A stretch of 64,000 bases of DNA, from contig JAPXSY010000008.1 of NCBI GenBank assembly GCA_033812795.1, positions 12,496 through 76,495 on the forward strand, written 5' to 3'. Source of the stretch: Kiritimatiellia bacterium (GTDB lineage: Bacteria > Verrucomicrobiota > Kiritimatiellia > RFP12 > UBA1067). Position 1 is the first letter of the stretch. Each line of letters starts with the position of its first letter. Below the pieces are notes generated by a model, which was given only the letters and a program-made list of their open reading frames with translations, was not told where the DNA came from and made no database searches. Below, piece after piece: positions 4,202 to 61,787 of this stretch. The position numbers and the translations under genes are program-made.

Positions 4202-4269
4202 GATGAATCCTTTGGTTCCCGCAATGAAGATTTCCATTGCGGGCGATGTGATACCGAGACCACCCGGGA

Positions 4270-10820: not shown

Positions 10821-10848
10821 CCCATTCCGCGTCCCTGTTTCCCGATTC

Positions 10849-30079: not shown

Positions 30080-31738
30080 ATGAAGACATTGACGATCGTC
30101 GCGGCGGTGTGCGCGCCGGCCGTTCTGCTGGCGGGGCTCTCGGTCAGTCCCGTGTTCATGGACAACATGATCCTCCAGCGCGACAAGCCGATCCCCGTCT
30201 GGGGAAGGGGCGAGGCAGGGAAAGAGGTGACGGTCGACTTCGCGGGCGCGCGGGCACGGGCAACCGTGGACGCGGACGGGCGCTGGGCGGCGACGCTGCC
30301 GGCGCTCGGCGTGTCGAACGATGACCGGACGATGACCGTGACGATGGGCGAAAAACAAGGCTTCTTCGCAAGGCTCTTCGGCTGTGCGCCCGAAGGCGAG
30401 CGCGTCACGTTCGCGAACGTGCTCGTGGGCGATGTCTGGCTCTGCTCGGGCCAGTCCAACATGGAATACTCGTTCTGCTGGTGGCCGTACTCCATGGACC
30501 TCTCGAAGGCCTTCTGCACGAACACGCCGAACTTCCGCTATTTGCGCGTGGCGCGCCACAAAGCGCCCGTGCCGCGCGAAACGCCGGAGATACAGGGCAA
30601 GTGGAGTGTGCTGACGGGGCAGGTGTGGTTCACGGCCTCGTGCGTCGGCTGCTTCTTCGCGCAGACCGTCATGGAGAAAACCGGGAAAAAGATACCGATC
30701 GGGCTCATTGACTCGAGCTGGGGCGGCATGAACATCGAACCGTACATTGACCCGACGTGCCTCCGGGACGACGACCCGAAGGCGCTGAAGGCGATCAAGG
30801 ACCGCTACGACGAAAACGCGAACCCGGCGACCGCCAAGGGCCGGATGAAATGGGACGCGTACCTCGCCCGGCAGAAGGCGTTCGTCGCGGACATCGAGGC
30901 GGCGGTCGTCGACGGCCGGCCGCCGGCCGGCGATCCCGCCGAAGTCCCCGTCTCGCACACCTACTGGAACGGCTGCTACCAGGCGATGATCCATCCGTTC
31001 GCGAAGTATCCGGTCAAGGGCGCGCTCTGGTACCAAGGGTGCGGCAACTATCCGGATAACGAGAACTACCAGTATCTCCTGGAGGGCCTCGTGCGCGGCT
31101 GGCGCGAGGCGTGGGGGTACACGTTCCCGTTCTACTGGGTGCAGCTCTCGTCCTTCGACAACAAGGGTGTCGTCGACGACGCGCCGGCGGGCGGACTCGG
31201 GTTCACGCGCGTCCGCGAGGGCATGCGCCGCGCGATGGCGACCATTCCACACGGCGGCATGTGCGTGACCTTCGACCTTGGCGACCCCAAGGACATCCAT
31301 CCGCGGGAAAAGCTGCACGTCGGCCAGCGTCTCGCGCAGTGGGCGCTTAAGAACGAGTACGGCTTTGACGACATCGTGCCGTCGGGGCCGAATTACCGCG
31401 CGATGAAGATTGAGGGTGACAGAATCCGTCTCTCATTCGACTACGTCGGGTCGGGCCTCGCCGTCGGCTACAAGAACAACTTCGACGACAGGGACGTGAA
31501 ACTCATGCCCGAGGCGAAGTTGAGCGGATTTGCGATCGCAGGCGAGGACCGCACATGGTTCTTCGCCGACGCGGTCATCGACGGCGACACGGTTGTCGTT
31601 TCGTCGAAGGACGTGAAGAAGCCGGTCGCGGTGCGCTACGCTTATCGCACGTCGCCGATCGGCGCGAACCTCTACAACCGGGAGCTTCTTCCCGCTTCGC
31701 CGTTCTGTACGGACGATTGGGAGAGGGAGAAGAAGTGA
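30080..31738 (+). CDS. SASA-domain (sialate O-acetylesterase-like, SGNH) carbohydrate esterase
   Basis: Signal peptide MKTLTIVAAVCAPAVLLAG. 'VGDVWLCSGQSNMEYSF' is the GQSNM catalytic-Ser block of the DUF303/SASA family. A GGAGA RBS is present. A 9-codon uORF ends in an ATGA overlap with the start. Confidence 0.7.
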   Translation: MKTLTIVAAVCAPAVLLAGLSVSPVFMDNMILQRDKPIPVWGRGEAGKEVTVDFAGARARATVDADGRWAATLPALGVSNDDRTMTVTMGEKQGFFARLFGCAPEGERVTFANVLVGDVWLCSGQSNMEYSFCWWPYSMDLSKAFCTNTPNFRYLRVARHKAPVPRETPEIQGKWSVLTGQVWFTASCVGCFFAQTVMEKTGKKIPIGLIDSSWGGMNIEPYIDPTCLRDDDPKALKAIKDRYDENANPATAKGRMKWDAYLARQKAFVADIEAAVVDGRPPAGDPAEVPVSHTYWNGCYQAMIHPFAKYPVKGALWYQGCGNYPDNENYQYLLEGLVRGWREAWGYTFPFYWVQLSSFDNKGVVDDAPAGGLGFTRVREGMRRAMATIPHGGMCVTFDLGDPKDIHPREKLHVGQRLAQWALKNEYGFDDIVPSGPNYRAMKIEGDRIRLSFDYVGSGLAVGYKNNFDDRDVKLMPEAKLSGFAIAGEDRTWFFADAVIDGDTVVVSSKDVKKPVAVRYAYRTSPIGANLYNRELLPASPFCTDDWEREKK

Positions 31739-31783
31739 GAATGGGAATTGGGAAACAGGAATAAGGAAACGAGGAGATTCAGG

Positions 31784-33382
31784 ATGAAGAAGACATGGAT
31801 TATTGGTTGTTCGATGGCAGCGTTCGCGGCGATGGCGAACGTGAAACCGGCGAATGTGTTCTCGAGCAACATGGTGCTCCAGCGCGATAAGGTCGTCCCG
31901 GTGTGGGGCACGGCCGATGCTGGCGAAGAGGTCAAGGTCTCGTTCGCGGGGCAGTCCGTTGCGGCGAAGGCCGATGCCGACGGCAGGTGGGAGGTGAAAC
32001 TCCAGCCGATGCCGGCCTCGAAGGAGAACCGGACGATGGTGATCGAGGGCAAGAACAAGATCGAGTTCAAGGACATCCTCGTCGGCGATGTGTGGCTCTG
32101 CTCGGGGCAGTCGAACATGGAGATGAGCTTCAACTGGGGCATCTACGACGGCGAGGCCTTCAAGAAGGAGGCGGCCGAGAAGTTCGACCCGATCCGCTGC
32201 GTGAAGGTCTCGAAGATCCACTCAACGTGGCCCAAAGCCGATGTGAAGCTCGATCATCCTTGGGCCCGTACCACCGCGAACGGCGGCATCGCCAACTGGA
32301 CGGCGACCGGCTATTTTTTCGCGCGCAGGCTTGTCCAAGAGTTGGACATCCCCATCGGCATCCTTGACGACAACTGGAGCGGTTGCCGGATCGAGCCGTT
32401 CATCCCGCTCTCGTCGTTCAAGAACTACAGCGCAACGAACGGCGCGTACGCCAAGCAGGTTAAGAGCTTTCTGGAGCTTCAGGAGAAGACCGATCCGCGC
32501 ACGGAGGCGGGCCGGAAGGTGTTCGCGAAGTACGCCGCAGAGATGAAGGCGTTTCTCGCGGCGGTCGAAGCGGCCGTCGCGGAGGGGAAGCTCCCCGAGG
32601 CCGACATGCCGGTGCTGCCGAGTGTCAGCGCGACCTCGCAGTACAACGCGATGATTGCGCCGATCGTGCGTTTTCCGATCGCCGGCGCGATCTGGTATCA
32701 GGGTTGCTCGAACGGGCAGGAGGGCGAGTCCTACACCGAGAAGACCGAGATGCTCGTCAAGGGCTGGCGCGAGGCGTGGGGTTATGAGTTCCCGTTCTAC
32801 TGGGTGCAGCTCGCGTCTTTCACGGCGAAGACAGACGATCCGAAGGGCGGCAACGGCTATGCGCTCATCCGTGACGCGCAACGCCTTGCGCTCAAGCGTC
32901 TGGAAAAGACGGGCATGGCGGTCACGATTGACGTCGGCAACGACAAGGACATCCATCCGAAGGCCAAGGTGTTCGTGGGCGAGCGTCTCGCGGCGTGGGC
33001 ACTCAAAGGCGCGTATGGCCGGGACGTCGTCCCCTCGGGTCCGCTTTTCAGGAAAGCGGAGGGGCTCGGCACGGCCGAGGTGACGCTGTCATTCGACTAC
33101 GTCGGCGGCGGTCTCACGGCGGGTGAGAAGGACAATCTCTCCAACGCGCCCGTCAAGCTCCTCCCCGACGCGAAGCTCGTCGGCTTCGCGGCCGAGGTCG
33201 AGGGCGGACAGTTCGTCTGGGCCGATGCGAAGATCGCGGGTGACAAGGTCGTCGTGACGGCCGGCGGCAAGACGATCCGGAACGTCCGCTACGGCTATCG
33301 CGCCAACGCGACGGGTCTTGCCAATCTCTACAACCGTGAAGCGTTGCCGGCTTCGCCATTTGCCACTGAAAACAAATGGTAA
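31784..33382 (+). CDS. SASA-domain carbohydrate esterase (paralog)
   Basis: Start at MKKTWIIGCSMAAFAAMA with RBS AGGAAACGAGGAG. 'VGDVWLCSGQSNMEMSF' is present. ~45% identity by eye to 30080..31738. Confidence 0.7.
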   Translation: MKKTWIIGCSMAAFAAMANVKPANVFSSNMVLQRDKVVPVWGTADAGEEVKVSFAGQSVAAKADADGRWEVKLQPMPASKENRTMVIEGKNKIEFKDILVGDVWLCSGQSNMEMSFNWGIYDGEAFKKEAAEKFDPIRCVKVSKIHSTWPKADVKLDHPWARTTANGGIANWTATGYFFARRLVQELDIPIGILDDNWSGCRIEPFIPLSSFKNYSATNGAYAKQVKSFLELQEKTDPRTEAGRKVFAKYAAEMKAFLAAVEAAVAEGKLPEADMPVLPSVSATSQYNAMIAPIVRFPIAGAIWYQGCSNGQEGESYTEKTEMLVKGWREAWGYEFPFYWVQLASFTAKTDDPKGGNGYALIRDAQRLALKRLEKTGMAVTIDVGNDKDIHPKAKVFVGERLAAWALKGAYGRDVVPSGPLFRKAEGLGTAEVTLSFDYVGGGLTAGEKDNLSNAPVKLLPDAKLVGFAAEVEGGQFVWADAKIAGDKVVVTAGGKTIRNVRYGYRANATGLANLYNREALPASPFATENKW

Positions 33383-41041: not shown

Positions 41042-41107
41042 ACGGTGCCGCCATTTTTTACCCCGGCGAGGATTGTGCACCGGGATGGAGAATGGTAACA
41101 TTATTCG

Positions 41108-44100
41108 ATGAATGTCGAAAAGGTCGTGGCGACCGTGGCGATTGCCGCGGGTGTGTGCTTTGCGGCGAATGCCGCAGAATGGAAGACGCTTCGGGACCTG
41201 CCGGTTTCGGCGGTAGGGAATGCGGCGTATCTGACGTCGATGACGGAGCGGCCGTGGTGGAACAAGGCGTGGACGCGGCGGACACCGATTCTGGTGTCGT
41301 CCGCGGCAAAAGCGTCGTGCGGCAAGATCGTGGTGGACGCTGTCGTCGACTTCGGGGAACAGGTGAACCCCGCCGAGGTGCGTTTGGTCACGCCCTGGGA
41401 AACCGAGGTTCCGTGTTGGGTCGAGGCGAAGGAAGGGACGAAACTCGAACTCTACTTCGAGACCGACCTGCGCATCGAGGAGAACCGCCCCTTCCTCGTC
41501 TACTGGGGCAATCCCGCGGCAAAGGCGCCGGACTTGTGGCCGACGATGACGATGCGGGTGAATGACGAAGAGGTGCGCATCGCGAACGGCGTCCTTGACG
41601 TCACCTTCGATAACCTTCACCGCACCAGCGGTCTTCTGAAGAAAATCCGCGTTCTGGCGTCCCAGACGCCGAATGAACTCCTCGACCGCGCCTCCGGTTT
41701 TGCTTGGGACGGTTTTTCGCTCCGTTCCGGCGCCGCCGAACCGTGGTCGAAGGCCAAGGTCGTTGCGGACAATCCCTTCAAGAAGCAGATCCGCTTCGAC
41801 AGCAAGAAGGTTACGCTGGACTTCACGCTTTACGCCAATCAACCGCGTGTGGACTACGCCTACACGCTCAAGCCAGGCAATGAACAGGCGAACATCAGCA
41901 TCTCATGGGCCTGTGGCGACGGGACGGGGGAGGACGATCTTTTCTATCCCGGCCTCGCGGGCAAGGTGCTGTCGCTCCGCGCTTCGCTCGACCATGCGAC
42001 GGACTGCATTCCCAACCCCCACTACGAGGGGCTGGGGAAGTATCTGGCGGAGGGCTGGTACGCGATCCGTGACCGCAAGCAGCATGAGGTCGTTGGCATG
42101 ATCTTCGACCGCCCCACTCTCGCATCCTTCGATTACAGCGGCGCGGGACAGTACGCGGGCGAGCGCTCGGTCATGACCTTCCGCCACCAAACCGAAAAGG
42201 ACAGGCCCGTCGGCGGTTCGGGTGCGCTCGTCGCGCTGATGGGCGGGGTGGACGATGTGCGGAATGAGTACCTGCGCTACTGTAAAGCGCCGATCATCTC
42301 CGTCGGCAAAACCGAGGCATACCGCGAAATCGCGGTGCGGCGTCCGCGGATTGACCGCGACTTCTGTGCGGACTATAACATCGGCAAGGGCGCAGGCGCG
42401 GGATGGGAGTCCGGCGAGCCGCTCGAAGGTGGCGAGTGGTGTTCGAACATCGTCGACCGCGTCCGTTCGCTCGGCGGCAACATCGTGCGCATCGGCGGCT
42501 ACGGGTGGCAGGATCTGGCGATCACGAAGGAACTTTACGACCGGATCGCGAAGGTGTGGGCCCTCCCGACCTCGCGCTCCAGGAATCGGAAGATGCCCGA
42601 GTGGCAGGAGGGTCAGTACACCGGTGAGAAGTTCCGCCAACATTGCGCGGCCGCGCATGCGAAGGGCGTGGCGGTCAGCCTGTGGTCCGGCTTCGTCCCC
42701 GGCGTCGGCTTCGACAATGACATGCTCTGGGACAAGGATGCGCAGGAGCTCGATACCGAGCTTCAGTGCCTTTACGCCGACCTCGGGGCGGACATCATAT
42801 ACAACGCCATGGCGTGCCGCGAGGGCGCGCATATTCCAACGGACGTCATAAAGGGACGCGGTACCTCGTGGTGGCTCTGGGACGATCCGCGCGACTTCTT
42901 TAAGACCGAGGATATCCGCACCGAGGCTATCAAAAAGTTCTACCGCGATTGCAAGCGGCGTCATCCGGACACGCCGGTCGTCGTCATGAACTCCGAATGC
43001 TCGATCATCGAGCGCGAGACCATGATGACGGATCAGGTCGGCGCGTTCGACTCCGTCTATTGTGAGATGCTCCCGCTCTGTGACAATCCGCGCACTCTGC
43101 CGCATACGAAGATGGCGGTGAAACGCCTGCGGGCGCTTTACGACAACGAGGCGGGACGGACCGTCCACGCTCATTTCTACTACTACGGACACGATTGCGT
43201 GCAACGCATCCTGCAGGTCGAGCTTCCCTACGTCTGGGGCATCAACGGCTTCACCTTCGAGAACCTCACCTACGAGAACTTCGGTAAGGAGCAGCCGAAT
43301 ATCACGGCGGACGCCTACCGCTTCCTAGAATACACCAAGCTCGGCGACAAGGTCGCAAGGATGGCGCCCGTGAAGGATCTCGCCGTCTTCCGCGACAACC
43401 GCGCTTACGTTGACGACGTCATCAACCACCGCCGCGGCAAGCCGTATGCCTACAGTACGCAGCAGGACGGACGCGCCAACGCCATCGCGGAGATCCGCAA
43501 CTGCGTCTATGACATCGTGATCGATCCGTTTTTCACCGCCAAGGCGCTCGCGAAATACCGCGCCGTCTACGTGCCCGAAGACCTTTCCTTTGGCGAAGAC
43601 CGCGCGAAGGAGCTGATCGGGTACGTGCAGGCCGGCGGCGGTGCCATTGTCGAGGGCCGGACCGTCGAGGGTAACGGTCTGTCGAAGCTCGGGCTTACGG
43701 ACGGGAAGGTGACGGATCTCGGCAAGGGCAAAATCGTCTGGCTCAAAGACGTTCTCACCGACCGCCTTGCGCGTCGCGACGCGAAGGCGTTCGCGCAGGC
43801 AAAGGAGCTGATGGCGTCTGTCGGCTGCCTCGCGCCGTTCACGCTTCCGTCCAAGACGCTCGATGCCAACCTTCAGATTTCCGAAGAAGGCATGTTCCTC
43901 GGCGTCTTCAACGATGGCAAGGAGGAAGACAAGGGGAGGGCGACCCTAAACCTCTCACACCTTCCAAACTTCTCGCACCTCTCAAACCCGCTTTACGTTC
44001 TCGACGTGAAGCGCGGCGTGCGTTTCCGCTATACGAATGGCTTCGAGGTTGTGGTGGGACCGGAGCAGTGCGGCTACTACCTCATCGGCGATGAGAAGTT

Positions 44101-44950
44101 CACAGCGCTGCCGGAGACGTCCGGCGGAGCATGGTTTGGCGCTTCCGCCTCACATGTCGGCGAACCTGGGAGGGGCTGCAAGATGCCGGTGCTCGACCGT
44201 TCCGAAGCGTTCCCGCGCGTCCATGCGCTGGAGTATGTGCGCGGTTCGGAGAAGAAGCCGACGATGATCCGCAGATCGATGCTGGCGGCGTTCGACATCA
44301 AGCAGGTCACACCCGATGCCTACGATCCCTCGCTGTTCGCCGCAGCCATCCGCAAGGCGACGTACCTGCACCTCTGCGCCAATGCCAAAGGCGCGGACCG
44401 GGCGTTCGCAGACTGCCCGGAGGAACTGAAGGCGATGCTCAAGCGCGGCGGAGCGATCCTTTTCGATCGTACGCGTCCAGGACCGAACGCGCAGAAGTTC
44501 CTGAAAGAGATCGGCGTTTTCGACCCCTATCCGTCCGCCAAGACCAAGATCGGCGACGGGAAATCCGTATGGGACGAGACCTTTCCGTCCAACCACCTCC
44601 TCTCGGCCTTCAACCGTGTTAAGGAGGGTTATTTCGGCAACGATTTCATCCGTCGGCTCGGCAGGGACGGCGGCCGTTACAATCTGGCGTTCGGCCAGTG
44701 GGATGCGGAGACACAACTCACGCCATTCCGCGCCGCGCTCAACAAGGATTACACGCACCTTATCATTCAGGAGCACGTGCTCGGCGCAGGCAAGGTTGCC
44801 TTCAACGAGAACGCGCGCTCGTTCAACGACTGGTACGAGTCGAAGATGTATGGCGACGCGCTCCTGTCGTGGCTCATCGGGATGCCGGTCAAGGACTATA
44901 AGGACAAGGCCGAACGCTACAATGGCGGACCCGGGAAAGCGGTGGAGTGA
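41108..44950 (+). CDS. giant secreted multidomain protein, paralog C (GH42-like architecture)
   Basis: 1280 aa with signal peptide MNVEKVVATVAIAAGVCFAANA. It has the same conserved blocks as paralogs A, B and D. 'YRAVYVPEDLSFGEDRAKELIGYVQAGGGAIVEG' is the trimerisation-like block. Confidence 0.6.
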   Translation: MNVEKVVATVAIAAGVCFAANAAEWKTLRDLPVSAVGNAAYLTSMTERPWWNKAWTRRTPILVSSAAKASCGKIVVDAVVDFGEQVNPAEVRLVTPWETEVPCWVEAKEGTKLELYFETDLRIEENRPFLVYWGNPAAKAPDLWPTMTMRVNDEEVRIANGVLDVTFDNLHRTSGLLKKIRVLASQTPNELLDRASGFAWDGFSLRSGAAEPWSKAKVVADNPFKKQIRFDSKKVTLDFTLYANQPRVDYAYTLKPGNEQANISISWACGDGTGEDDLFYPGLAGKVLSLRASLDHATDCIPNPHYEGLGKYLAEGWYAIRDRKQHEVVGMIFDRPTLASFDYSGAGQYAGERSVMTFRHQTEKDRPVGGSGALVALMGGVDDVRNEYLRYCKAPIISVGKTEAYREIAVRRPRIDRDFCADYNIGKGAGAGWESGEPLEGGEWCSNIVDRVRSLGGNIVRIGGYGWQDLAITKELYDRIAKVWALPTSRSRNRKMPEWQEGQYTGEKFRQHCAAAHAKGVAVSLWSGFVPGVGFDNDMLWDKDAQELDTELQCLYADLGADIIYNAMACREGAHIPTDVIKGRGTSWWLWDDPRDFFKTEDIRTEAIKKFYRDCKRRHPDTPVVVMNSECSIIERETMMTDQVGAFDSVYCEMLPLCDNPRTLPHTKMAVKRLRALYDNEAGRTVHAHFYYYGHDCVQRILQVELPYVWGINGFTFENLTYENFGKEQPNITADAYRFLEYTKLGDKVARMAPVKDLAVFRDNRAYVDDVINHRRGKPYAYSTQQDGRANAIAEIRNCVYDIVIDPFFTAKALAKYRAVYVPEDLSFGEDRAKELIGYVQAGGGAIVEGRTVEGNGLSKLGLTDGKVTDLGKGKIVWLKDVLTDRLARRDAKAFAQAKELMASVGCLAPFTLPSKTLDANLQISEEGMFLGVFNDGKEEDKGRATLNLSHLPNFSHLSNPLYVLDVKRGVRFRYTNGFEVVVGPEQCGYYLIGDEKFTALPETSGGAWFGASASHVGEPGRGCKMPVLDRSEAFPRVHALEYVRGSEKKPTMIRRSMLAAFDIKQVTPDAYDPSLFAAAIRKATYLHLCANAKGADRAFADCPEELKAMLKRGGAILFDRTRPGPNAQKFLKEIGVFDPYPSAKTKIGDGKSVWDETFPSNHLLSAFNRVKEGYFGNDFIRRLGRDGGRYNLAFGQWDAETQLTPFRAALNKDYTHLIIQEHVLGAGKVAFNENARSFNDWYESKMYGDALLSWLIGMPVKDYKDKAERYNGGPGKAVE

Positions 44951-44952
44951 AA

Positions 44953-47900
44953 ATGATGAACAAAATCATGGCGGCCCTTGCGGTCGCCTTTGGGGTTTTC
45001 TCCGCCCTCGCGGCGGAGACGGTCGAACTCAAGGCGAAGCCGACGGTGACGCCGGTTGAACTCAACTTCGGTGACACCGTGAAGTTCACGCTCTTGAACG
45101 GAGAGACGCGGACGATCCGGCTTGTCGACACCTCCGCGCAGATCATCGAGATCCCGACTGTGGAAGGGCTCGTTTTCATGTTCGACGTGACGCTCGAGGT
45201 CGATGGCCACCGCGTCAAGATCGACCGCTATACTGCGACGCAACAGGCGTTCTACGAGCCGATTGTCATCAACGGCATGCGTATCTGGGCGGATATGGCG
45301 CTCAGTGTCTACGATGTGATCCCGATGCGTTATCCCGGCACCGGCAACCAGCGGCAGCGTCCGTGGAAGGATATGCGCCTTGCCCTGCAGGATGCGACAA
45401 TCGAGGATTGTCCGGTCAAACTCTCGAAGTGGTTCGACTACCGGCACCCCTCGATCTTCATCGGCGACTGCTATCACGGCGGCGATTGCTGGATGGGATC
45501 CTTCGGTGCTGGCGTTGCGCATGGCGGCCTCGACGTGAACCAGCGCGAGGGCGACCCGCTCTGGGCACCGATGGACTTCGACGATCAGGGCTACTTCCAG
45601 TCGCTCGCCACAGGCAGCAACAACAACCGTTGGCGCGGCTGGCGCACCTGGCCGGACGGTTCGATCTGGGCGTTCCAGTGTCACCATGTCATCACGCAAT
45701 ACGTCGCGCAGGGTATGAGCGTCAAGCAGGGGACGCATCTTTTCGACGGTGCCGGCGTCTGGGTCGGCTGGTATAACCACAACCACTACGAGTTCAAGGT
45801 CGCCAACGGCAAGATGCCGGATTGGAATGCGGGCGGAAGGAATAGCGCGGATGGACGCGGCGGCCGTGCGCTCGAACACGGGCAGCCCGAGGTCTACCAT
45901 CTTGATCCGTGGATCTACTTCCGCCAGATCTTCCGTAACGAACGCGAAAAGACGGGCTACGTCTATCCTGAGATGGCGCCGCCCGGTCCAGCGAAGACGG
46001 CCGAGGCGGTCGTTTTCGAACTGACGAAGGGCGGATCGGATGATGTCTATTGGGACTTTGGCGACGGCGCGTTCGGACGCGGCGCGAAAGTGACGCACCG
46101 ATATGCGAAGCCCGGCCTCTATGCGGCACGCGCAGTCATCGTGCGTGAAGACGGCTCACTCGATGAGGTGATCCGCCATCTGACTGTGAACGGTGCGGCA
46201 AGTCTGCTGCCGTCGCTGATCGTCCAGTCGGACGACCATCGCTTCCGCCCCTGGCCGACGGGAACGCAATACGCTTTCGGTTACGATCTCGTCAACTACC
46301 GCCCGGGCGGTTTCGAAATCAAGGCACCGATCGGACAACGCAATCTTCCGACGGAATCGCGCACGTTCCGCTTCGCGAACGCTGGCGGCGGCGTGTTGCC
46401 CCCTATCGCCGCGGCACTTTCCGAGCCGTGTGACTGGATCGTCCTCCAGCCGACTGCGGACGGCGTCACGTTCACGGTCGATCCGATGAAGGCGAAGGAC
46501 GGCGTCAACGAGGCGGCGATCGTGCTCAAGGGTGAAGGACTCCTGAACGGTGAGGTCACCGTGCCGGTACGGCTCGCTAAAGTGAAGTGCGGTTACTACA
46601 CCGGAAGTTTCCGTCTCGATAGCAATGCGCATACGTGCTTTTACGCTACGCCCGGTTTTTGGTGTTCGCACCGATTGAGCGGAAGCAAGCGGTATTACAA
46701 GATGTCCGGCAACCGTCCCGAATCGGACGCCATCGCGCGTTTCATCCCCGAACCGATGGCAGCGGGCACCTATCGTGTACGCGTGGACGGTGATGCGCCC
46801 TGGGCGGCCGGCAGCAAATGTTGGGTGGATGTCAAGGATGCGGCCGGCCTTCATCGCGTCCGCTTCGAGCCCGCGAAGTCCTGGACGGTCGGCACTTTCC
46901 GGTTTGCGGCGGGCGGCGGCAATTACGTCGAGTTCCGCACGCAAGACAGCGTCGGCAGCGTCGCCGTGAACCATCTCGCGTTTGATCGCCTGCCCGACAC
47001 CCCGCCGGTCGCCAAGGCGCCGTACGTTCCTGAAACGATCGAGCTGAAGGCGAAACCGACGGTGACGCCCGTTGAAATGAACTGCGGCGATGTAGTGAAA
47101 TTCACGCTCCTCAATGGTGCGACACGCACACTCACGCTCATTGGCACCTCGGCGCGCATGGCCGCATGTACGACCACGGAGACGATCCTGGGCTTCGATG
47201 CGACGCTGGAGATCGACGGACACCGCGTGACATTCCAACGCAACACATGCGAGCCCGAGGCGTTCTATGAGCCGTTCGTCGTGAACGGACTGCGTATCTG
47301 GCCCGATATGGCGCTTAAGATTTTCGACGTCATGCCGATGCGGCAGGCATGCGAAGGCAACGGCCGGCGGCGTCCGTGGAAGGATCTGCGCCTTGCCCTG
47401 CAGGATGCGACGATCGAAGACTGTCCGGTCAAACTCTCGAAGTGGCTCGAGTATCCGCGTCTGGCGCCGAGTGTCAACGATGGGCGTGTCGGCGGCATGT
47501 GCTGGATGGGTTCCTTCGAGGGGCATCACATCCATGGCGGTCTCGACATCCGTCAGCAGCCGGACAAGACGGCGCTTTCGGCACCGCTTGATCTGGACGA
47601 TCAGGCACCGTTGCCGGAAAGGACGAAACATTCGCGCGAGGGCCGCTGGCGTGGCATCCGGAAATGGGACGATGGATCGGTCTGGGCGTTCGAGTGCCAT
47701 CACATCGTGACGCAGTCCGTCCCCGCGCATGTGAGCGTCAAGCAGGGAACGACGTTCCTGACAGGCGGCAAGCCGCATCCCGGCCACCATATGCACACGC
47801 ATTTCGAGTTCCGTGTCGCCAACAACGGAATGCCCGACTGGGACGCGAGCACCTATGCGCGTGACGGCGGAGCGGGGACGCGCGCGCTCGAACACGGCCA

Positions 47901-49008
47901 GCCCGCTGTGTATCACCTTGATCCGTGGATTTATTTCCGCCAGATCTTCCGCAACGAACGCGAGCGGACGGGCTATGAATATCCCGAGTTGGCCCCGATC
48001 GGTCCCGCGAAGACCGGCGAGGCGGTGGCGTTTGAAGTGTTGAGGGGATGTGGCACCGCGACGAATCGCGCGGAGGTCTGCTGGGATTTCGGTGACGGAG
48101 CCTTCGGCCGCGGAGAAAAGGTGACGCACCGCTATGCGAAACCGGGGATTTACGCGGCGCGGGCGGTGTTTGCACGTCCTGACGGCACGTTCGACGAGGT
48201 CGTCCGCCACCTGACGGTGGACGGGACAAGGATTGCGGTTCCCGATCTCGTTGTGAAGTCCGACGAACCCGCTTTCTTCCCGCATCCGGCGGGAGTTCCA
48301 CAGGCGTTTGCATACGGACGCGTCAATCTGCGCCCTGGTCAGTTCGCTTTCATAACGGACGAGAAGCGGCCCAGTGCCGAGACGCGCACATTGCGTTTTG
48401 CGAACGCGGGCGGTGGCGTGCTGCCGAAGGTGACGGCGACGTTGAAAACGCCGTGCGACTGGCTGACGTTGGCGTCGGTGGCGGAGGGTGTCGTCCTGAC
48501 GGCGGACGGCACGAAAGCGCCCGCAGGGGTTTCGGAGGCGGTGATCGTCCTCGCCGGCGACAACCTGCTGAACGGAGCGGTTGAGGTTCCGGTGCGTTTC
48601 GATGTCGGGGCGCACACCTTAATCAAACGTGACCGCCTCAACCTCGATGCGTCCGGTGTCGGCTTCTATGCGACGCCGGGGGGATGGCTTGGTCTTGCGG
48701 GCGGTGCATTCACGTCCGGCGGACGCAATCGTCCGGGTGAAGTCGCGCGCTTCACACCGCAAATGCTGGAGGCGGGCGAGTACACGGTGTGCATACCGCT
48801 CAACACGCCCTGGCCAATGGGCCATCAATGCAACGTTCGCGTACGGGATGCCGGGGGTGTGCAGACGGTGCGGTTCGATCCGGCGAAGTCAATGACGCTC
48901 GGGGCCTTCCGTTTCGCCGCAGGCGGCGGCAACTACATCGAGTTCGAAAGTGCCGGGGCCACGGGTGAAGTCGTCGTGCGCAAGGTGCGTCTGATTCCCA
49001 ATCGTTAA
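44953..49008 (+). CDS. internally duplicated secreted protein: each ~670-aa half carries an M23-metallopeptidase-like motif set plus a PKD domain and a C-terminal beta-sandwich
   Basis: Start ATG 44953 with a GGAG SD; a GTG at 44947 would overlap the upstream stop as GTGA. The halves are about 55-60% identical by eye (ETVELKAKPTVTPVELNFGDTVKFTLLNG vs ETIELKAKPTVTPVEMNCGDVVKFTLLNG). M23-like motifs are 'HGGLD' (HxxxD) and 'HNHYEFKV' / 'HTHFEFRV' (HxH, cf. PHLHFEV). PKD motifs are 'WDFGDGAFGRG.KVTHRYAKPG.Y'. Confidence 0.55.
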   Translation: MMNKIMAALAVAFGVFSALAAETVELKAKPTVTPVELNFGDTVKFTLLNGETRTIRLVDTSAQIIEIPTVEGLVFMFDVTLEVDGHRVKIDRYTATQQAFYEPIVINGMRIWADMALSVYDVIPMRYPGTGNQRQRPWKDMRLALQDATIEDCPVKLSKWFDYRHPSIFIGDCYHGGDCWMGSFGAGVAHGGLDVNQREGDPLWAPMDFDDQGYFQSLATGSNNNRWRGWRTWPDGSIWAFQCHHVITQYVAQGMSVKQGTHLFDGAGVWVGWYNHNHYEFKVANGKMPDWNAGGRNSADGRGGRALEHGQPEVYHLDPWIYFRQIFRNEREKTGYVYPEMAPPGPAKTAEAVVFELTKGGSDDVYWDFGDGAFGRGAKVTHRYAKPGLYAARAVIVREDGSLDEVIRHLTVNGAASLLPSLIVQSDDHRFRPWPTGTQYAFGYDLVNYRPGGFEIKAPIGQRNLPTESRTFRFANAGGGVLPPIAAALSEPCDWIVLQPTADGVTFTVDPMKAKDGVNEAAIVLKGEGLLNGEVTVPVRLAKVKCGYYTGSFRLDSNAHTCFYATPGFWCSHRLSGSKRYYKMSGNRPESDAIARFIPEPMAAGTYRVRVDGDAPWAAGSKCWVDVKDAAGLHRVRFEPAKSWTVGTFRFAAGGGNYVEFRTQDSVGSVAVNHLAFDRLPDTPPVAKAPYVPETIELKAKPTVTPVEMNCGDVVKFTLLNGATRTLTLIGTSARMAACTTTETILGFDATLEIDGHRVTFQRNTCEPEAFYEPFVVNGLRIWPDMALKIFDVMPMRQACEGNGRRRPWKDLRLALQDATIEDCPVKLSKWLEYPRLAPSVNDGRVGGMCWMGSFEGHHIHGGLDIRQQPDKTALSAPLDLDDQAPLPERTKHSREGRWRGIRKWDDGSVWAFECHHIVTQSVPAHVSVKQGTTFLTGGKPHPGHHMHTHFEFRVANNGMPDWDASTYARDGGAGTRALEHGQPAVYHLDPWIYFRQIFRNERERTGYEYPELAPIGPAKTGEAVAFEVLRGCGTATNRAEVCWDFGDGAFGRGEKVTHRYAKPGIYAARAVFARPDGTFDEVVRHLTVDGTRIAVPDLVVKSDEPAFFPHPAGVPQAFAYGRVNLRPGQFAFITDEKRPSAETRTLRFANAGGGVLPKVTATLKTPCDWLTLASVAEGVVLTADGTKAPAGVSEAVIVLAGDNLLNGAVEVPVRFDVGAHTLIKRDRLNLDASGVGFYATPGGWLGLAGGAFTSGGRNRPGEVARFTPQMLEAGEYTVCIPLNTPWPMGHQCNVRVRDAGGVQTVRFDPAKSMTLGAFRFAAGGGNYIEFESAGATGEVVVRKVRLIPNR

Positions 49009-49030
49009 AGGGGAGAACAGGACAAGGAAT

Positions 49031-50143
49031 ATGAAAAGCAGAATACTGATGGTGGCGATATTGGCTGCGGTCAGTAAGGGAATGGCGGCTAGGACATCGC
49101 GTGTCTTCGGCGATAACATGGTCCTTCAAAGCGGTCGTCCGATACCCGTGTGGGGCACGGGCGAGGTCGACGAGACCGTATCCGTCGCGTTCGGCGGCAA
49201 CACCGCATCATGCCGGGTCGGTGCGGATGGCAAATGGCAGGTCGTCCTCAAGGCCGAGAGCCCTGCGGTGGCACCGCGCGAACTGACGATCACCGCGGCA
49301 TCGGGTGCGCAGACGTTCAAAAATGTGCGCGTCGGCGATGTCTATATCATTATGGGCGACCGACATGTTGGCTGGCCGTTCTGGTCGGTCGGCGCGGAGA
49401 TCAAGACGGATCTCGATCGCTACGCCGACACAAACCTCTGCTACTTCATTTCGCCCATCCAGCGGCGCGCGTCGTATCCGCTCGATGACCTCGAACCGCC
49501 GACGCCGCATGCCGGCTTCTGGCGCAGTGTCGTCAACAAGGATCGGCTTAGCTCTTTCGCCTACTTCTATGCGCGCGAACGCGCCGTGAAGACGAAGATG
49601 CCCGTTGGCGTCATCGTTGTGACCGGCGGGGCGTACGATCGTTGTGATGCGCGTATGTTCATGCGCCCCGAGGCCTATGCGGCCAGTCAGAACGACAAGG
49701 GCAATCCGCAGGCATATGACGCGCTCAACCCGACATCCGAGAAGGGGCTCGCCGCGCTCAAGGAGGCGGCCGCCCGCATTCAAACGTGGGCCGATGACGC
49801 GCTCGCGCTTCCACAGGGTGAATATCCCGCTTCCAACATGCCTGAGTTGCCGAATCTGGAGAAGTATGGACAAGTCACTACGCATTACAACTACCAGATG
49901 TCGCCATTCGCCAAGACGCCGATCAAGGGCGCGGTGTTCTATGCGGGCTACGGATGGGGATACGACCCGAAAGAAGCGCCGCTCGCCGAAGAACTGAAAA
50001 CCGACATGCGCCGTGTCTGGGGCGACGACATCGCGTTCACCATCGTTCCGGTACCGGAGAAGACCGTGATGGAAGGGGATTGTCCCTCAGAATGCAACAA
50101 GCCGCTGGAAGTCGTCCGCAATCTGGACGCGTCGAACAAATGA
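49031..50143 (+). CDS. truncated, degenerate SASA-like protein lacking the catalytic GQSNM motif (likely pseudoenzyme)
   Basis: 370 aa with signal peptide MKSRILMVAILAAVS. The N-terminal 'VFGDNMVLQSGRPIPVWGTGE..' is homologous to the SASA paralogs. At the catalytic position, 'VGDVYIIMGDRHVGW' replaces 'VGDVWLCSGQSNM'. AGGGGAGAACAGGACAAGGAA RBS region. Confidence 0.5.
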   Translation: MKSRILMVAILAAVSKGMAARTSRVFGDNMVLQSGRPIPVWGTGEVDETVSVAFGGNTASCRVGADGKWQVVLKAESPAVAPRELTITAASGAQTFKNVRVGDVYIIMGDRHVGWPFWSVGAEIKTDLDRYADTNLCYFISPIQRRASYPLDDLEPPTPHAGFWRSVVNKDRLSSFAYFYARERAVKTKMPVGVIVVTGGAYDRCDARMFMRPEAYAASQNDKGNPQAYDALNPTSEKGLAALKEAAARIQTWADDALALPQGEYPASNMPELPNLEKYGQVTTHYNYQMSPFAKTPIKGAVFYAGYGWGYDPKEAPLAEELKTDMRRVWGDDIAFTIVPVPEKTVMEGDCPSECNKPLEVVRNLDASNK

Positions 50144-50162
50144 CAGGAGATCGAGGAAGACG

Positions 50163-51776
50163 ATGAGGTCAATGGTTGCGGTGTTTTTGGGGTGCCTCGC
50201 GCTCGGTGCGCAGGCGTTTACGGTGTCAACGATCTATTCGGACAACATGATGCTCCAGCGCGGCAAGCCGATCAAGGTGACGGGGTCGGGCGCGCCGAAC
50301 GAGACCGTGGAGGTCACGTTTGACGGCGAGACGGTGAAGGCGGCGGCGAACGCGCACGGACGATGGCTCGCGACACTCGCGCCGCGTGAGGCGTGTAAGG
50401 TGCCGAAGACGTTGACCGTCACGGGCGGCGGCAAGACTGTCACTTTCAAGAACGTTCTCGTCGGTGACGTGTGGGTCTGCTCGGGGCAGTCGAACATGCA
50501 CTGGAACATCGCCTGGGGCGGATGCTACCATCAGGAGGATGTCAAGGCCGAGGCCGAGACGAACGCACCGTATTTCCGCGGGATCGACCTGAGGCGCGGA
50601 TCACTCCTCTTTCCTGCGGCTGAGGTACGCCTCGACGGTTGCAGTTACAAGAAGTGGGTGAAAATGGGCAAGCGTCCTGGCGAGGTCTCGGCGCTCGGCT
50701 TCATGTTCGGGCTTAAGCTCTCGAAGGCTTGTCCTGACGTGCCGATGGCGATCATCTCGCTCGCTCAAGGCGGCAGTCGCATCGAACCGTGGATCCCGCT
50801 AGACGGCTATGATGGAATCAAAGGCCTTGAGGAAGAGGCCGCTGCGGCGGAACTTTACGACTTCGGCAAGCCGCAGGGACGCGCGGTGCTGAATGGGGTA
50901 CTCAAGGACATCTCCGGTTGGGCAAAGGGCTTTGCGGCGCTTTCAACGAACGACTTCCCGTATGCGCCGCAGCCGATGCTGCCGCGTCCTCTCAAAGGAC
51001 ACGCGGGACTCTACAACCACATGATGGCGCCACTGGAGACATTCCCGTTCAAGGGCGTGATCTGGTATCAGGGTGAGTCCAACGAGGACGATGCGAAATA
51101 CGGCATCAAGCAGCGCGCGCTCATCACCTCCTGGCGCAGGCGTTTCGACACGGACATGCCGTTTTACTTCGTTCAACTTCCTAACTTCGGCGAGAAGAAC
51201 AAGCCCGGTGATTTCAGGATGCGAAAGTACTCCGCAATCCGTATTCTCCAGGCCGAATCGCTGGATCTGCCGCTGACCGGCATGGCCGTCACGACTGACA
51301 CGGCGGACGACAACCAGTTACATCCCAAGAACAAGCTTGACGTCGCCGACCGCCTTGCGCGCATGGCGCTGAATGACCTCTACGGTCAGAAACAGCCGAA
51401 CGAGGGTCGCTCTCCCGTATTCCGTGCCGCGGCGCTTTCGGCTGACGGCAAGGAGATCGTCATTCACTTCAAATATGCCGAAGGCGGTCTCGCCAATGGA
51501 ACGCGCGAGATCGAGAAAGCGCCGGTGCTAACGGATGCGAAGGATGTCAAGGGCGTCGTCGTCACGCTTGCGAACGGACGCGAGGTCGCACCGGAGTCAG
51601 CAGTGATTGACGGTGAGGTTTTCCGCATTTCCGTTGACGGCGACCAACCGATTGCCGCCGTGCGCTACAACTGTTTTGCCTACCCCGAGCACCACGTCTG
51701 GTCAAAGACAACCGGACTGCCGCTTGCCCCGTTCAAGACAGCATCCCTTGTTACCTGTAGTGCGATACCGAAATGA
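50163..51776 (+). CDS. SASA-domain carbohydrate esterase (paralog)
   Basis: Signal peptide MRSMVAVFLGCLALGAQA. 'VGDVWVCSGQSNMHWNIAWG' is present. GAGGAAG RBS. Confidence 0.7.
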   Translation: MRSMVAVFLGCLALGAQAFTVSTIYSDNMMLQRGKPIKVTGSGAPNETVEVTFDGETVKAAANAHGRWLATLAPREACKVPKTLTVTGGGKTVTFKNVLVGDVWVCSGQSNMHWNIAWGGCYHQEDVKAEAETNAPYFRGIDLRRGSLLFPAAEVRLDGCSYKKWVKMGKRPGEVSALGFMFGLKLSKACPDVPMAIISLAQGGSRIEPWIPLDGYDGIKGLEEEAAAAELYDFGKPQGRAVLNGVLKDISGWAKGFAALSTNDFPYAPQPMLPRPLKGHAGLYNHMMAPLETFPFKGVIWYQGESNEDDAKYGIKQRALITSWRRRFDTDMPFYFVQLPNFGEKNKPGDFRMRKYSAIRILQAESLDLPLTGMAVTTDTADDNQLHPKNKLDVADRLARMALNDLYGQKQPNEGRSPVFRAAALSADGKEIVIHFKYAEGGLANGTREIEKAPVLTDAKDVKGVVVTLANGREVAPESAVIDGEVFRISVDGDQPIAAVRYNCFAYPEHHVWSKTTGLPLAPFKTASLVTCSAIPK

Positions 51777-60021: not shown

Positions 60022-60326
60022 TTGCCTGTACCTCCTGTTCTCTCACCTTTGCATGCGTAGACACTCCTTCTTGAGAAGAAGTTTCTGAGCCCGCTCGACC
60101 TTGGCGCGGACAATCGGCGTGGGTAAATATGGTATCACAATCTTCAGAAGCAAACAGGATCGATTACGAAACAAATTCAGGAAAAACGAATTTTTTACCA
60201 CATAGAAAAAAGGTTTTCATTTTCTCGACCTCAACGCCTGAATCGCTTTTTCAAATTCCGCCCCACATGTGTAAATTGAAAACACCCGGTTTTACATTCC
60301 GTTACGGCTTTGCTACGCTCCCGGGC

Positions 60327-61787
60327 ATGTGTTCCCGGAGTTTCGTCCTCTTCTGCTTCCTGTTCGGAGGCCCCGTATGCGCGATGTCCGCCACGGAACC
60401 CCCGATCCGCATCGTCTTCCCGGCTGAAGGCGCGCGACTGGCATACACGGACCGCGTGTTTGTGATCGGCGCGGTGCGGCCTGCCGACGTGCCGCTGACG
60501 CTCGATGAACGCCCGATCACACCGCACCGCACCGGCGGATTCCTGCACATGGCTCCGGTCTCCCCCGGCACCAACACCCTGATCTTCAACGCGGGAGGGA
60601 CCGTGATCCGTCACACCTTCCGAATCGATCCGCCGCCCCAGAGTTGGGATGGCTGTTCCCTACGCGCGCAGGCTCCACTCCAACCGCTGGGGCTCTGTAC
60701 CGGCGAAACGGTCCGGCTCGCCTGCCTCGCGCCAGCGGACCGCACGGTCTTCGCCGCGGTGGGCGAACGGACCCTCGCACTCGTACCGCAACCCGGCCAC
60801 GCCACGCTTTACGCGGCCAAGCTCGCGTTTGACGTGCCGGTCGCCGACGTGCCGGTGACCTTTTTCGCCACCGGGTTGTTGGACGCCGCAGCAGCCCCGC
60901 TCACCGCACGCGCCGACTGGCCGGCCCTACGCACAACCGGCCCCCTCTTCGCAATGCGCGCGCGTAGCGAACCGGGCGGCGGCGAGACCGTGGCCTTTTT
61001 GCCTCCTGATCTGACCGTGCGGGGCGCCGGGTTCGTTGGCGCACACACCCGTTTCTGGCTGGCCGGCGAACGCCGGTTCATGGAGTCGCGTCATCTCACT
61101 TCCCTCGCGCCGGAACATCCCCTGCCGCCCTGCGACCTCCCGATTCCCGATCTCACGGCCGGATTCACCTTGAACCCGCCCGTGGGCCGCGCGCCAGACT
61201 CCATTTTGATTGTGCTGGACCCCGGACACGGCGGCGCTTCGACCGGCGCGGTAGGCCCTACCGGGCTGACAGAAAAAGAGGCCAATCTGATTCAGGCGCA
61301 CCGGGTGGCCGCCACGCTCCGCAAGGCCGGATTCCGCGTGTTGCTGACGCGTGAGGATGACAAGGATTTAGACCTGTATGCGCGTGTGCGGCTGGCCTAT
61401 GAGCGAAAGGCTGACGCCTTCATCTCGATCCATTATAACTCCTGCGGACCTGCGGGCAACCCCTCCGAAAGCCGACACATCGCCACCTACGCCTGGAATG
61501 CGATTGGCCTCCGTCTGGCCCGGGCCCTCCACCCGCATCTGGCTGCGGCGTCCCCTGCGGCTGACGGTGGTGTGCGCACCGCCAGCTTCGCGGTTTGCCG
61601 CAATCCCGTCGTCCCCGCCTGCCTGCTGGAACTCGATTTCATCACCTGCCCCCTCGGCGAGGAGTCGCTTCAACAACCCGATCAACGCGAACGCGTGGCC
61701 CACGCGGTTCTGGCCGGTCTGCGCGACTGGCTCACGCCTTCGCCACGTACCGAATCGGCCAATAACGCAACACCAAACAAGGAGTGA
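60327..61787 (+). CDS. N-acetylmuramoyl-L-alanine amidase (Amidase_3/AmiC-like) with N-terminal accessory domains
   Basis: The C-terminal domain has 'LIVLDPGHGG...GLTEKEANL...GFRVLLTREDD...ADAFISIHYNS', matching Amidase_3. The start is uncertain: ATG 60327 (MCSRSFVLFCFLFGGPVCA signal) versus upstream ATGs. Confidence 0.6.
   Translation: MCSRSFVLFCFLFGGPVCAMSATEPPIRIVFPAEGARLAYTDRVFVIGAVRPADVPLTLDERPITPHRTGGFLHMAPVSPGTNTLIFNAGGTVIRHTFRIDPPPQSWDGCSLRAQAPLQPLGLCTGETVRLACLAPADRTVFAAVGERTLALVPQPGHATLYAAKLAFDVPVADVPVTFFATGLLDAAAAPLTARADWPALRTTGPLFAMRARSEPGGGETVAFLPPDLTVRGAGFVGAHTRFWLAGERRFMESRHLTSLAPEHPLPPCDLPIPDLTAGFTLNPPVGRAPDSILIVLDPGHGGASTGAVGPTGLTEKEANLIQAHRVAATLRKAGFRVLLTREDDKDLDLYARVRLAYERKADAFISIHYNSCGPAGNPSESRHIATYAWNAIGLRLARALHPHLAAASPAADGGVRTASFAVCRNPVVPACLLELDFITCPLGEESLQQPDQRERVAHAVLAGLRDWLTPSPRTESANNATPNKE

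Follow-up and report, generated by a model that had tools for sequence, protein, structure and literature searches.

A two-module protein with M23/LytM-fold domains in a glycan-degrading gene neighbourhood of a Kiritimatiellia bacterium

The gene at positions 44953 to 49008 of the 64,000-nucleotide stretch of Kiritimatiellia DNA analysed here (the window) is, with high confidence, a genuine duplicated gene with M23-fold modules. Its product, a rare fusion of two anciently duplicated modules, comes from a small family that has no name and lies at the outer margin of the M23 superfamily. Taken as a whole, the evidence is best explained by a two-module secreted M23-fold enzyme cutting a peptide link in a glycoconjugate, a reading in which we place slightly more belief than doubt.

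From the ATG at 44953 the open reading frame (44953-49008, plus strand) encodes 1351 aa and a stop codon, and from a GTG at 44947 it encodes 1353 aa; residues are numbered here from the methionine at 44953. The start region contains GGAG at 44944-44947 and ATG codons at 44953 and 44956, and the upstream gene ends at the TGA in 44948-44950, so that the two genes either lie 2 nt apart or overlap at GTGA, depending on the start codon. In each module a beta-sandwich is followed by an M23/LytM-fold domain and then by PKD, Ig-like and CBM6/35-like (Golvesin_C) domains, five parts in all. The features of the gene and its immediate neighbours are as follows.

41108..44950, +: upstream 1280-aa protein, 2 nt from the target gene
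44953..49008, +: whole open reading frame, with signal peptide, module 1, 17-aa linker and module 2; alternative GTG start at 44947
44953..45015, +: predicted Sec signal peptide MMNKIMAALAVAFGVFSALAA, read from the sequence, with a cleavage site of the ALA-A/E type (slash at the cut) and no lipobox Cys
45016..45462 (boundary approximate), +: module 1 N-terminal beta-sandwich subdomain, aa 22-170, family-specific, from structure models and conserved motifs
45463..45957, +: module 1 M23/LytM-fold domain, aa 171-335, with predicted Zn ligands H190, D194 and H278 and predicted catalytic H245 and H276
46000..46191, +: module 1 PKD domain, aa ~350-413
46210..46590, +: module 1 Ig-like beta-sandwich, aa ~420-546, no Pfam model match
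46591..46980, +: module 1 C-terminal CBM6/35-like beta-sandwich, aa ~547-676, weak Golvesin_C match
46981..47031, +: inter-module linker FDRLPDTPPVAKAPYVP
47032..47478, +: module 2 N-terminal beta-sandwich subdomain, aa 694-842
47479..47985, +: module 2 M23/LytM-fold domain, aa 843-1011, with H861, D865, H917, H948 and H950 kept
48025..48228, +: module 2 PKD domain, aa ~1025-1092, best Pfam PKD_4 stretch 1019-1072
48244..48618, +: module 2 Ig-like beta-sandwich, aa ~1098-1222, by alignment to module 1
48619..49005, +: module 2 CBM6/35-like (Golvesin_C) domain, aa ~1223-1351, Pfam Golvesin_C at 1261-1342
49031..51776, +: two downstream genes, for a 370-aa protein and a 537-aa SASA-type carbohydrate esterase, at gaps of 22 and 19 nt

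The module repeat starts exactly at the mature N-terminus, with ET(V/I)ELKAKPTVTPVE. An earlier note on this DNA had read the protein as a tandem internal duplication and proposed aligning its halves; the alignment confirmed it, with residues 22-676 and 694-1351, two modules of about 670 aa each, sharing 55% identity over 662 aa (363 identical, E=0) and 69% identity over 1213 nt of DNA, in register at an offset of 2013-2016 nt. The near-identical repeat described in both halves was also recovered, at 45370-45432 and 47383-47445, where 59 of 63 bases are shared and the product is D(M/L)RLALQDATIEDCPVKLSKW. The suggestion that the duplication is an assembly artefact, in favour of which there is nothing except that a repeat exists, is rejected on two grounds: at the DNA level the halves have diverged to 69% identity, and an orthologue (P0177) shows the same two-module fusion on three independent metagenome contigs from three samples. 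The intact reading frame and clean linker also count against it, as does a tree of both proteins in which each module groups with its counterpart in the other protein; the duplication took place before the source organism and that of the orthologue separated. An artefact can thus be regarded as practically out of the question.

The relationship of each half to M23 peptidases, claimed in the same note from motifs, is supported by the more sensitive tests. Pfam Peptidase_M23 (PF01551) matched neither half, even at E<=10, nor the whole protein, but a profile built from 58 relatives and searched against the PDB found LytM (2b44, 2b0p) as the best solved structure (E=0.0025), a marginal yet specific result in that five of the six matches listed are M23 entries. 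This profile aligns all five active-site residues to those of LytM. The HGGLD and HxHFEF-type blocks described in each half are present as HGGLD at residues 190-194 and 861-865 and as HNHYEF at 276-281 (module 1) and HTHFEF at 948-953 (module 2), providing the HxxxD and HxH zinc-ligand motifs as H190-GGL-D194 and H276-N-H278, and as H861-GGL-D865 and H948-T-H950. The additional catalytic histidines, H245 and H276 in module 1 and H917 and H948 in module 2, align to their LytM counterparts, which we take to be H260 and H291. All five residues (H, D, H, H, H) are invariant in alignments of 58 and 76 relatives. The characteristic M23 beta-sheet fold was found, with LytM, lysostaphin, Csd1-3, DipM and EnvC as the closest structural matches at 10-21% sequence identity to solved M23 domains. 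Both halves therefore carry an M23/LytM-fold domain with a complete predicted set of metal-binding and catalytic residues. Weak matches to PF01551 in 18 of the 58 relatives (best E=3.2e-6; one of the relatives, P0081, has a precomputed match) also speak for the M23 relationship. Since the window protein itself does not match this model, the placement holds at the level of superfamily and fold, outside the Pfam family as now delimited.

Several features set this family apart from M23/LytM enzymes such as LytM, lysostaphin, LasA, Csd3 and MepM. It adds invariant DCW.G, NNRWRG and LDPWI motifs of its own and a beta-sandwich of about 150 aa that is always present; SFYEPW and RLALQDA..CP are conserved in this sandwich, which in module 1 is modelled with pLDDT mostly above 90. 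Its partners in the chain are PKD, Ig-like and CBM6/35-like domains and its genes lie in glycan-utilisation loci, whereas canonical M23 domains come with SH3b, LysM or coiled-coil partners and serve in cell division or as autolysins, and the window protein carries two catalytic-type modules per chain. The PKD domains that had been noted in both halves, alongside beta-sandwich modules that were likewise found there, belong to the PKD domain group (PF00801/PF18911): both score above the Pfam gathering threshold (PKD_4, 67.6 bits) and carry the WDFGDG signature at residues 367 and 1044. The C-terminal domain shows a beta-sandwich CBM fold and, at residues 1261-1342, a match to Golvesin_C (PF25275; 32.9 bits, cut-off 31.6), a domain classed as CBM6/35/36-like (PMC9166713). 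Its closest systems are CBM6/CBM35-type modules, the carbohydrate-binding module of a Paenibacillus xanthan lyase (6f2p) and Golvesin_C itself; here it is joined to an M23-fold domain, whereas CBM6/CBM35 and 6f2p-type modules are joined to a glycosidase or lyase. The target protein matched no glycoside hydrolase or polysaccharide lyase catalytic domain.

No Pfam or NCBIfam model covers the family, the members of which are annotated only as "PKD domain-containing". Its profile retrieves 271 clusters among 1.84 billion representative proteins, essentially the family itself, mostly from Planctomycetota, Lentisphaerota, Verrucomicrobiota and Bacteroidota. The usual full-length form has one module and about 650-750 aa. 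Long-form relatives have 20-60 extra residues before the domain and short forms have none; roughly every second relative is a 300-aa form that lacks a signal peptide, and for the family as a whole this sits badly with a role in degrading polymers outside the cell.

The glycan-degrading setting described in the earlier note was corroborated, the target gene being part of a long series of carbohydrate-active genes on one strand, spaced 2-66 nt apart. Neighbours of this type in the window include GH16+GDSL, three SASA esterases, GH78, a GH28-like protein and AXE1, together with DUF5696, MGH1-like and GH127 middle domain proteins; the downstream 370-aa protein has a weak Ca_tandemer repeat match. 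The description of the giant upstream protein as GH42-like found no support: sequence searches of Pfam, NCBIfam and the PDB gave no match for it, and of its two paralogues, at 299-4318(-) and 6990-10961(-), only the latter matches Glyco_hydro_42M, below threshold (E=2.8e-4, 20.9 bits, cut-off 25.8). A 90.7%-identical orthologue of the upstream protein is encoded in a Lentisphaeraceae MAG (L020) closely related to the source organism (90% DNA identity in the flank), where the target gene is absent from the corresponding place and is, hence, dispensable.

Among relatives, the family tends toward carbohydrate-utilisation loci. SASA, GH130 and sulfatase genes adjoin some members, an MFS transporter with GFO_IDH_MocA genes or a GH16 gene adjoins others, and GH36 and GH2 genes occur nearby. 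In Bacteroidota the order is ECF sigma, FecR, SusC, SusD, the module gene and a PF12831 gene, and in minimal SusC/SusD loci, such as those of cultured Dyadobacter strains, the module protein and one or two PF12831 flavoproteins are the only enzymes. This context is heterogeneous and has no universal neighbour, the commonest being PF12831 (7 of the 125 neighbours scanned), and at some loci all the surrounding genes are housekeeping genes. It lends soft support to the idea, raised in the earlier note, that the M23-like fold may have been repurposed to cleave glycans or glycopeptides.

Following secretion, which would proceed via the Sec signal peptide, the CBM-like and PKD/Ig domains could anchor the enzyme on a glycan-bearing polymer. 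A water activated by zinc in the M23 site would then cleave an amide (peptide) link of a glycoconjugate, candidates being a glycoprotein, a proteoglycan or a peptide-cross-linked polysaccharide, and thereby give the glycosidases and esterases of the neighbouring genes access to the substrate. Tentatively, at somewhat under even confidence, we place the cut at a peptide link of a glycoconjugate, and not at one in peptidoglycan or at a non-peptide bond. Polysaccharide utilisation loci (PULs) encode M60-like (BT4244-type) and OgpA-type enzymes, secreted zinc peptidases with carbohydrate-binding and Ig-like modules that lie among glycosidase or SusC/D genes and cleave the peptide backbone of glycoconjugates. 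The resemblance to these enzymes, among them the O-glycopeptidase OgpA (PMC7518263), would be one of concept only, a functional analogy and not family membership: they are HEXXH gluzincins, whereas the window protein has an M23 fold with HxxxD/HxH, an unrelated active site, matches no gluzincin family in Pfam and shows no HEXXH motif with gluzincin fold.

To our knowledge, the targets of all characterised M23 enzymes are cross-links in peptidoglycan or peptides of a Gly-rich or elastin-like kind, and a glycoprotein substrate would be without precedent. The protein might accordingly be a classical M23 peptidoglycan endopeptidase cutting cell-wall peptide cross-links, used to feed on dead or neighbouring bacteria or to remodel the cell's own wall, and placed in a glycan locus since peptidoglycan is a glycan-peptide polymer. 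Every closest structural match is a peptidoglycan hydrolase or its regulator, the full catalytic residue set is kept, the CBM-like domain could bind glycan strands, and an Amidase_3 gene is present in the window (60129-61787). That gene, however, lies 11 kb away, past a convergent GH78 gene and mnmA, and the rhamnosidase, GH28-like, GH16, GH127-like and acetyl-esterase types in the window point instead to plant, algal or microbial heteroglycans. Peptidoglycan enzymes (muramidase, amidase, transglycosylase, L,D-/D,D-peptidase) are absent from the 25 commonest families among the 125 scanned neighbours, and the number of clusters retrieved by the profile places the family sharply apart from canonical M23; we consider a peptidoglycan substrate rather unlikely. 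Less likely again is a repurposing of the M23 fold for a non-peptide bond, acting alongside the PF12831 flavoprotein on an amide- or ester-linked polysaccharide substituent (such as an N-acyl, lactyl or amino-acid decoration) or on the glycan itself, and amounting to a new carbohydrate-active enzyme family. The fusion to a CBM6/35-like domain, the recurrence in CAZyme-rich loci, the minimal Bacteroidota loci in which no other enzymes occur, and the invariant NNRWRG and LDPWI beyond the M23 core together with the extra N-terminal subdomain would all suit such a role. Yet the catalytic residues are exactly those of peptidases, so that the sequence does not call for new chemistry; SusC/D-like systems can import peptides too, as RagAB does; and non-peptidase chemistry is not known to us for any M23-fold enzyme, nor did literature searches find an example. 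A broader reading, in our view doubtful and intermediate in probability between these two, takes the family as a novel group of enzymes that act on glycans or glycoconjugates with an M23 fold, forming a self-sufficient two-enzyme system with a secreted PF12831 flavoprotein. ECF sigma, anti-sigma, SusC, SusD, the M23-like module and PF12831 would serve an unrecognised polymer with no glycoside hydrolase, and the two-headed window version would have arisen as a specialised offshoot taken into a large operon for heteroglycan degradation. The familiar roles of M23 enzymes are to cut cell walls, to regulate cell division and to serve as antibacterial tools; the branch seen here is sharply set off from the rest of the superfamily, carries a CBM-type fusion and recurs in glycan-utilisation loci across four phyla. 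If the family cuts glycoconjugate peptide links or does new chemistry, a blind spot in CAZyme-centred PUL annotation would be filled, and the family would point to a substrate class invisible to current pipelines. Experiments on the family are feasible, the minimal locus being available in cultured Dyadobacter strains.

Loss of the metal ligands is what defines degenerate LytM factors, which act as regulators; EnvC, NlpD, SpoIIQ and DipM are top structural neighbours of the window modules, the second of which is partly degenerate. One or both M23 domains could be non-catalytic LytM-type domains (EnvC, NlpD, SpoIIQ) in a surface glycan-binding or scaffold protein, which is very improbable given that the five residues are invariant family-wide and present in both modules and that the catalytic region of module 1 shows a dN/dS of 0.06-0.10 against the orthologue. 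Assignment as a regulator of the EnvC/NlpD type was rejected, both window modules retaining all metal ligands, which EnvC, NlpD, SpoIIQ and DipM lack. We judge it likely that module 1, at least, is an active metallohydrolase. Module 2 is the more degenerate copy: its N-terminal beta-sandwich has a dN/dS of 0.27, versus 0.06 for the module 1 counterpart, and its beta-subdomain and C-terminal domains 0.27-0.34; it keeps 47 of 70 family-conserved positions, compared with 56 of 70 in module 1 and 65-70 of 70 in typical members. In its M23 domain the five catalytic residues are kept and many family-conserved positions around them are gone. Module 1 would thus be the strongly constrained working head, and module 2, apparently drifting despite its five catalytic residues, possibly a second, weaker or more binding-oriented head. 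The M23 part of module 2 is deleted in the orthologue, and the window protein and this orthologue minus one head constitute a natural experiment on the contribution of a second catalytic module.

The open reading frame under study runs on the forward strand from GTG 44947 to 49008 (1353 aa), or encodes 1351 aa if read from ATG 44953, and it is internally duplicated, as the earlier note had claimed from the sequence alone. Aligned end to end, residues 22-676 and 694-1351 are tandem duplicates with 55% identity (363/662, E=0); the repeat copies lie in register at a spacing of 2013-2016 nt, and the halves are 69% identical at the DNA level over 1213 nt. The near-identical stretch reported from both halves was recovered, with 59 of 63 bases the same between 45370-45432 and 47383-47445. 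An assembly artefact, which had been offered as an alternative, is ruled out: a collapse or duplication error is impossible because the copies differ at 31% of nucleotides, and the same fusion is found in an orthologue, P0177, on three contigs from three assemblies. The GTGA arrangement with the upstream 1280-aa gene is also present. The stop of that gene (TGA 44948-44950) lies between a GGAG at 44944-44947 and ATG codons at 44953 and 44956, and the two genes overlap if GTG is the start and are otherwise 2 nt apart. The 63-nt stretch, 94% identical between halves versus 69% overall, encodes the family-conserved segment RLALQDA..CP..L..W, and the high identity there is due either to gene conversion at this site or to an unusually strong constraint that includes synonymous positions.

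The protein is secreted and consists of two modules, each with an M23 fold, an intact set of active-site residues, and PKD, Ig-like and CBM6/35-like domains. The motifs HGGLD, H(N/T)H(Y/F)EF and WDFGDG occur once per half, as first noticed, and Pfam finds the two expected PKD domains together with a C-terminal Golvesin_C domain. The proposal that both halves carry an M23 domain holds through the family profile, and not through a direct Peptidase_M23 match in Pfam, which neither half gives. When the catalytic regions (the first 328 aa of each half) were scanned at E<=10, no Pfam model matched at all, M23 included; phmmer with the full-length protein as query retrieved nothing but PKD matches from the PDB sequences, and NCBIfam holds no model for this M23-like family or for its Dyadobacter homologue. 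A database search yielded 86 relatives, nearly all without annotation. The alignment of 58 of these has 15 invariant columns, including H169, G171, D173, H224, H255 and H257 (domain numbering), which, judged from the alignment, make up the HxGxD ... H ... HxH pattern of M23 peptidases. The best solved structure for the profile built from this alignment is LytM (E=0.0025), and the profile aligns all five active-site residues (the four histidines and the aspartate) to zinc ligands and catalytic histidines of LytM. Individually, 18 of the 58 relatives match Pfam Peptidase_M23 (best E=3.2e-6), and the alignment also gave a confident AlphaFold model, with a pLDDT of 88.7 and a pTM of 0.89. The window protein is thus a member of the M23/LytM superfamily at the level of fold and active site; the Pfam model PF01551 itself does not match it, and its family is set apart from M23 by invariant motifs of its own and by an obligatory extra subdomain. 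Membership in a glycoside hydrolase or polysaccharide lyase family was considered and rejected.

Predicted catalytic residues (protein numbering) and the insertion that follows HxH
Module 1, catalytic set: H190, D194, H245, H276, H278
Module 2, catalytic set: H861, D865, H917, H948, H950
45805-45890 (+), insertion in module 1, aa about 285-313
47820-47906 (+), insertion in module 2, aa about 957-985

The insertion, of about 25 aa and rich in Gly, Asp and Arg (MPDW...GRALEHGQP), directly follows HxH in both halves and in P0177, is absent from the rest of the family, and is the sole low-confidence stretch inside the models.

P0177 (1209 aa; L089 1923-5552, also L090 and L091, metagenome assemblies of which one is labelled bovine) is the only other protein in which fused double modules were seen. 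In the tree, the first modules of the window protein and P0177 group together (70% identity), as do their second modules (55% identity), and the duplication therefore predates the split of the two organisms. A clean deletion in P0177 has taken out the M23 part (~165 aa) of module 2 and spared the beta-subdomain, PKD, Ig-like and CBM-like parts of that module. The modules of the window protein are likewise unequal. Against P0177, dS is saturated and only the ranking of dN/dS values is meaningful: 0.06 for the beta-subdomain and 0.10 for the M23 domain of module 1, 0.27 for the beta-subdomain of module 2, and 0.23 and 0.34 for the C-terminal Ig-like and CBM-like domains of modules 1 and 2, respectively. 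Of 70 positions kept in at least 90% of other family members, module 1 retains 56 and module 2 retains 47, compared with 65-70 in typical members. Module 2 lacks the NN of NNRWRG, the GAGV loop and the N.P.GTP loop, and has all five catalytic residues. Catalysis would accordingly fall mainly to module 1, with module 2 as a second head that is drifting. Unfused tandem pairs also exist: a Bacillota MAG carries two module genes of 700 aa (L057 9851-14114) and a Tepidisphaeraceae MAG two genes of the short form (L058 8855-10900), indicating that tandem duplication of the family gene recurs.

The target gene sits in a CAZyme operon, and the glycan-degrading neighbourhood described in the earlier note is borne out by carbohydrate-active genes that form a long run on one strand.

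Carbohydrate-active genes around the target
GH16+GDSL
Three SASA-type esterases: 30080-31738, 31748-33382 and 50163-51776, all in the same strand run
GH28-like, AXE1 and DUF5696
MGH1-like protein, GH127 middle domain and GH78 rhamnosidases

The three SASA-type genes (sialate or carbohydrate O-acetylesterase, ~540 aa) are paralogous and hint at a heavily O-acetylated target glycan. Scans of 39.0-52.6 kb for promoters and terminators found about as many as chance would give and are uninformative on operon structure. The description of the upstream giant as GH42-like did not survive, as it has no match in Pfam, NCBIfam or PDB sequences. It is one of three paralogous giants of about 1300 aa, at 299-4318 (-), 6990-10961 (-) and 41108-44950 (+), which share this lack of matches; a sub-threshold hit to the GH42 trimerisation domain (GH42M) is confined to one paralogue of the upstream giant, and one giant is matched by an orthologue of 90.7% identity in L020, a locus of a Lentisphaeraceae MAG. 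The three have the look of an unclassified family that has expanded in a glycan-degrading genome.

On the profile evidence, the M23-like family is small and sharply bounded: a search of 1.84 billion representatives returned 271 clusters (50% identity) at E<=1e-3 and 106 at E<=1e-30, and the profile stops short of the very large canonical M23 family. Scanning of species-representative genomes gave 289 loci, the majority in Planctomycetota, with others in Lentisphaerota, Kiritimatiellia, Verrucomicrobiota, Armatimonadota, Hydrogenedentota, Acidobacteriota, Bacillota and Bacteroidota, the last including cultured Dyadobacter strains. Two architectures dominate, one of ~300 aa that begins right at the domain without a signal peptide, and one of about 650-750 aa that carries a leader at its N-terminus and is equivalent to one module of the window protein. 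The ~300-aa forms make up about half of the family (P0003-P0080; loci L001, L004, L005, L058, L065, L066 and others), and their sequences suggest a cytoplasmic location, odd for an M23-fold enzyme. At least 90% of members share the cysteines C114, C132, C152 and C158 (domain numbering), and the domain also occurs inside Planctomycetales proteins of more than 1900 aa (P0203, 1920 aa; L009 3-5744, residues 1247-1680). Public annotation calls members just "hypothetical" or "PKD domain-containing protein", and literature searches on M23 peptidases, PF12831 and PULs turned up no description of the family.

The neighbourhoods of relatives lean, loosely, to carbohydrate-type loci. Depending on the locus, members lie beside SASA, GH130 and sulfatase genes, beside an MFS transporter with GFO_IDH_MocA genes, beside GH16, near GH36 and GH2, or, in at least one case, with housekeeping genes only. 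When 365 neighbours from 60 loci were clustered, no partner gene proved universal, and the largest clusters were sulfatase and the FAD_oxidored flavoprotein PF12831 (8 loci each). The commonest neighbour is PF12831, immediately downstream, and a Pfam scan of 125 flanking proteins counted it 7 times, followed by GFO_IDH_MocA (6), SusD (4) and sulfatase (3-4). With two queries, tblastn located PF12831 at 5 of 91 loci at E<=1e-10 and nowhere in the window. Given these counts (5/91 by tblastn, 7/125 by Pfam), the pairing is lineage-restricted rather than defining, and we treat it as limited to Bacteroidota, one Lentisphaeraceae locus and a few others. The Bacteroidota order is ECF sigma, FecR-type anti-sigma, SusC (STN domain), SusD, module and one or two PF12831 genes; such minimal SusC/D loci, free of any glycoside hydrolase, were found in Dyadobacter, Chitinophagaceae and Bacteroidales, at about 2.2-14 kb within each of L068, L074, L077 and L082. 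Among these, L077 and L068 belong to Dyadobacter bucti QTA69 and Dyadobacter sp. CY323. L020 encodes an ECF sigma, an anti-sigma, a 708-aa module and a PF12831-like product, the last apparently with a signal peptide.

The reading that we favour, by a little, is that the CBM-like domain would anchor the enzyme on a glycan-bearing polymer, in which the zinc site would hydrolyse an amide (peptide) link, and that this cut would open the polymer to the neighbouring glycosidases and esterases. Its main rival, classical peptidoglycan cleavage, has perhaps one chance in four in our estimation. To our knowledge, that is the sole chemistry documented for the M23 fold; however, the 25 most frequent families in the 125 proteins flanking family members include none that metabolises peptidoglycan, and the neighbours in the window are plant- or algal-type enzymes. 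A repurposed, non-peptidase chemistry on the M23 fold is rather improbable, more so than peptidoglycan cleavage, and would be the most interesting outcome if true. A purely non-catalytic role, as a degenerate LytM regulator, is unlikely, since the metal ligands are invariant. For cleavage of a glycoconjugate, the nearest functional analogue may be the PUL-encoded, CBM-bearing glycoprotein peptidases (M60-like, OgpA-type), whose fold is unrelated. The fused domains and the genomic context are new among M23 proteins, without amounting to a categorically new system.

The L020 locus (contig CAYZQL010000005.1) matches window 41046-44989 at 90.5% DNA identity and then runs straight into the match of window 51414-51549, so that window 44990-51413 is absent (L020 2430-2418). 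Of the target gene L020 retains 37 nt at the start, and of the SASA gene the 3' end. A deletion of 6.4 kb thus seems to have removed the two-module gene, a 370-aa gene and the greater part of the SASA gene from this lineage, which shows that the target gene is dispensable.
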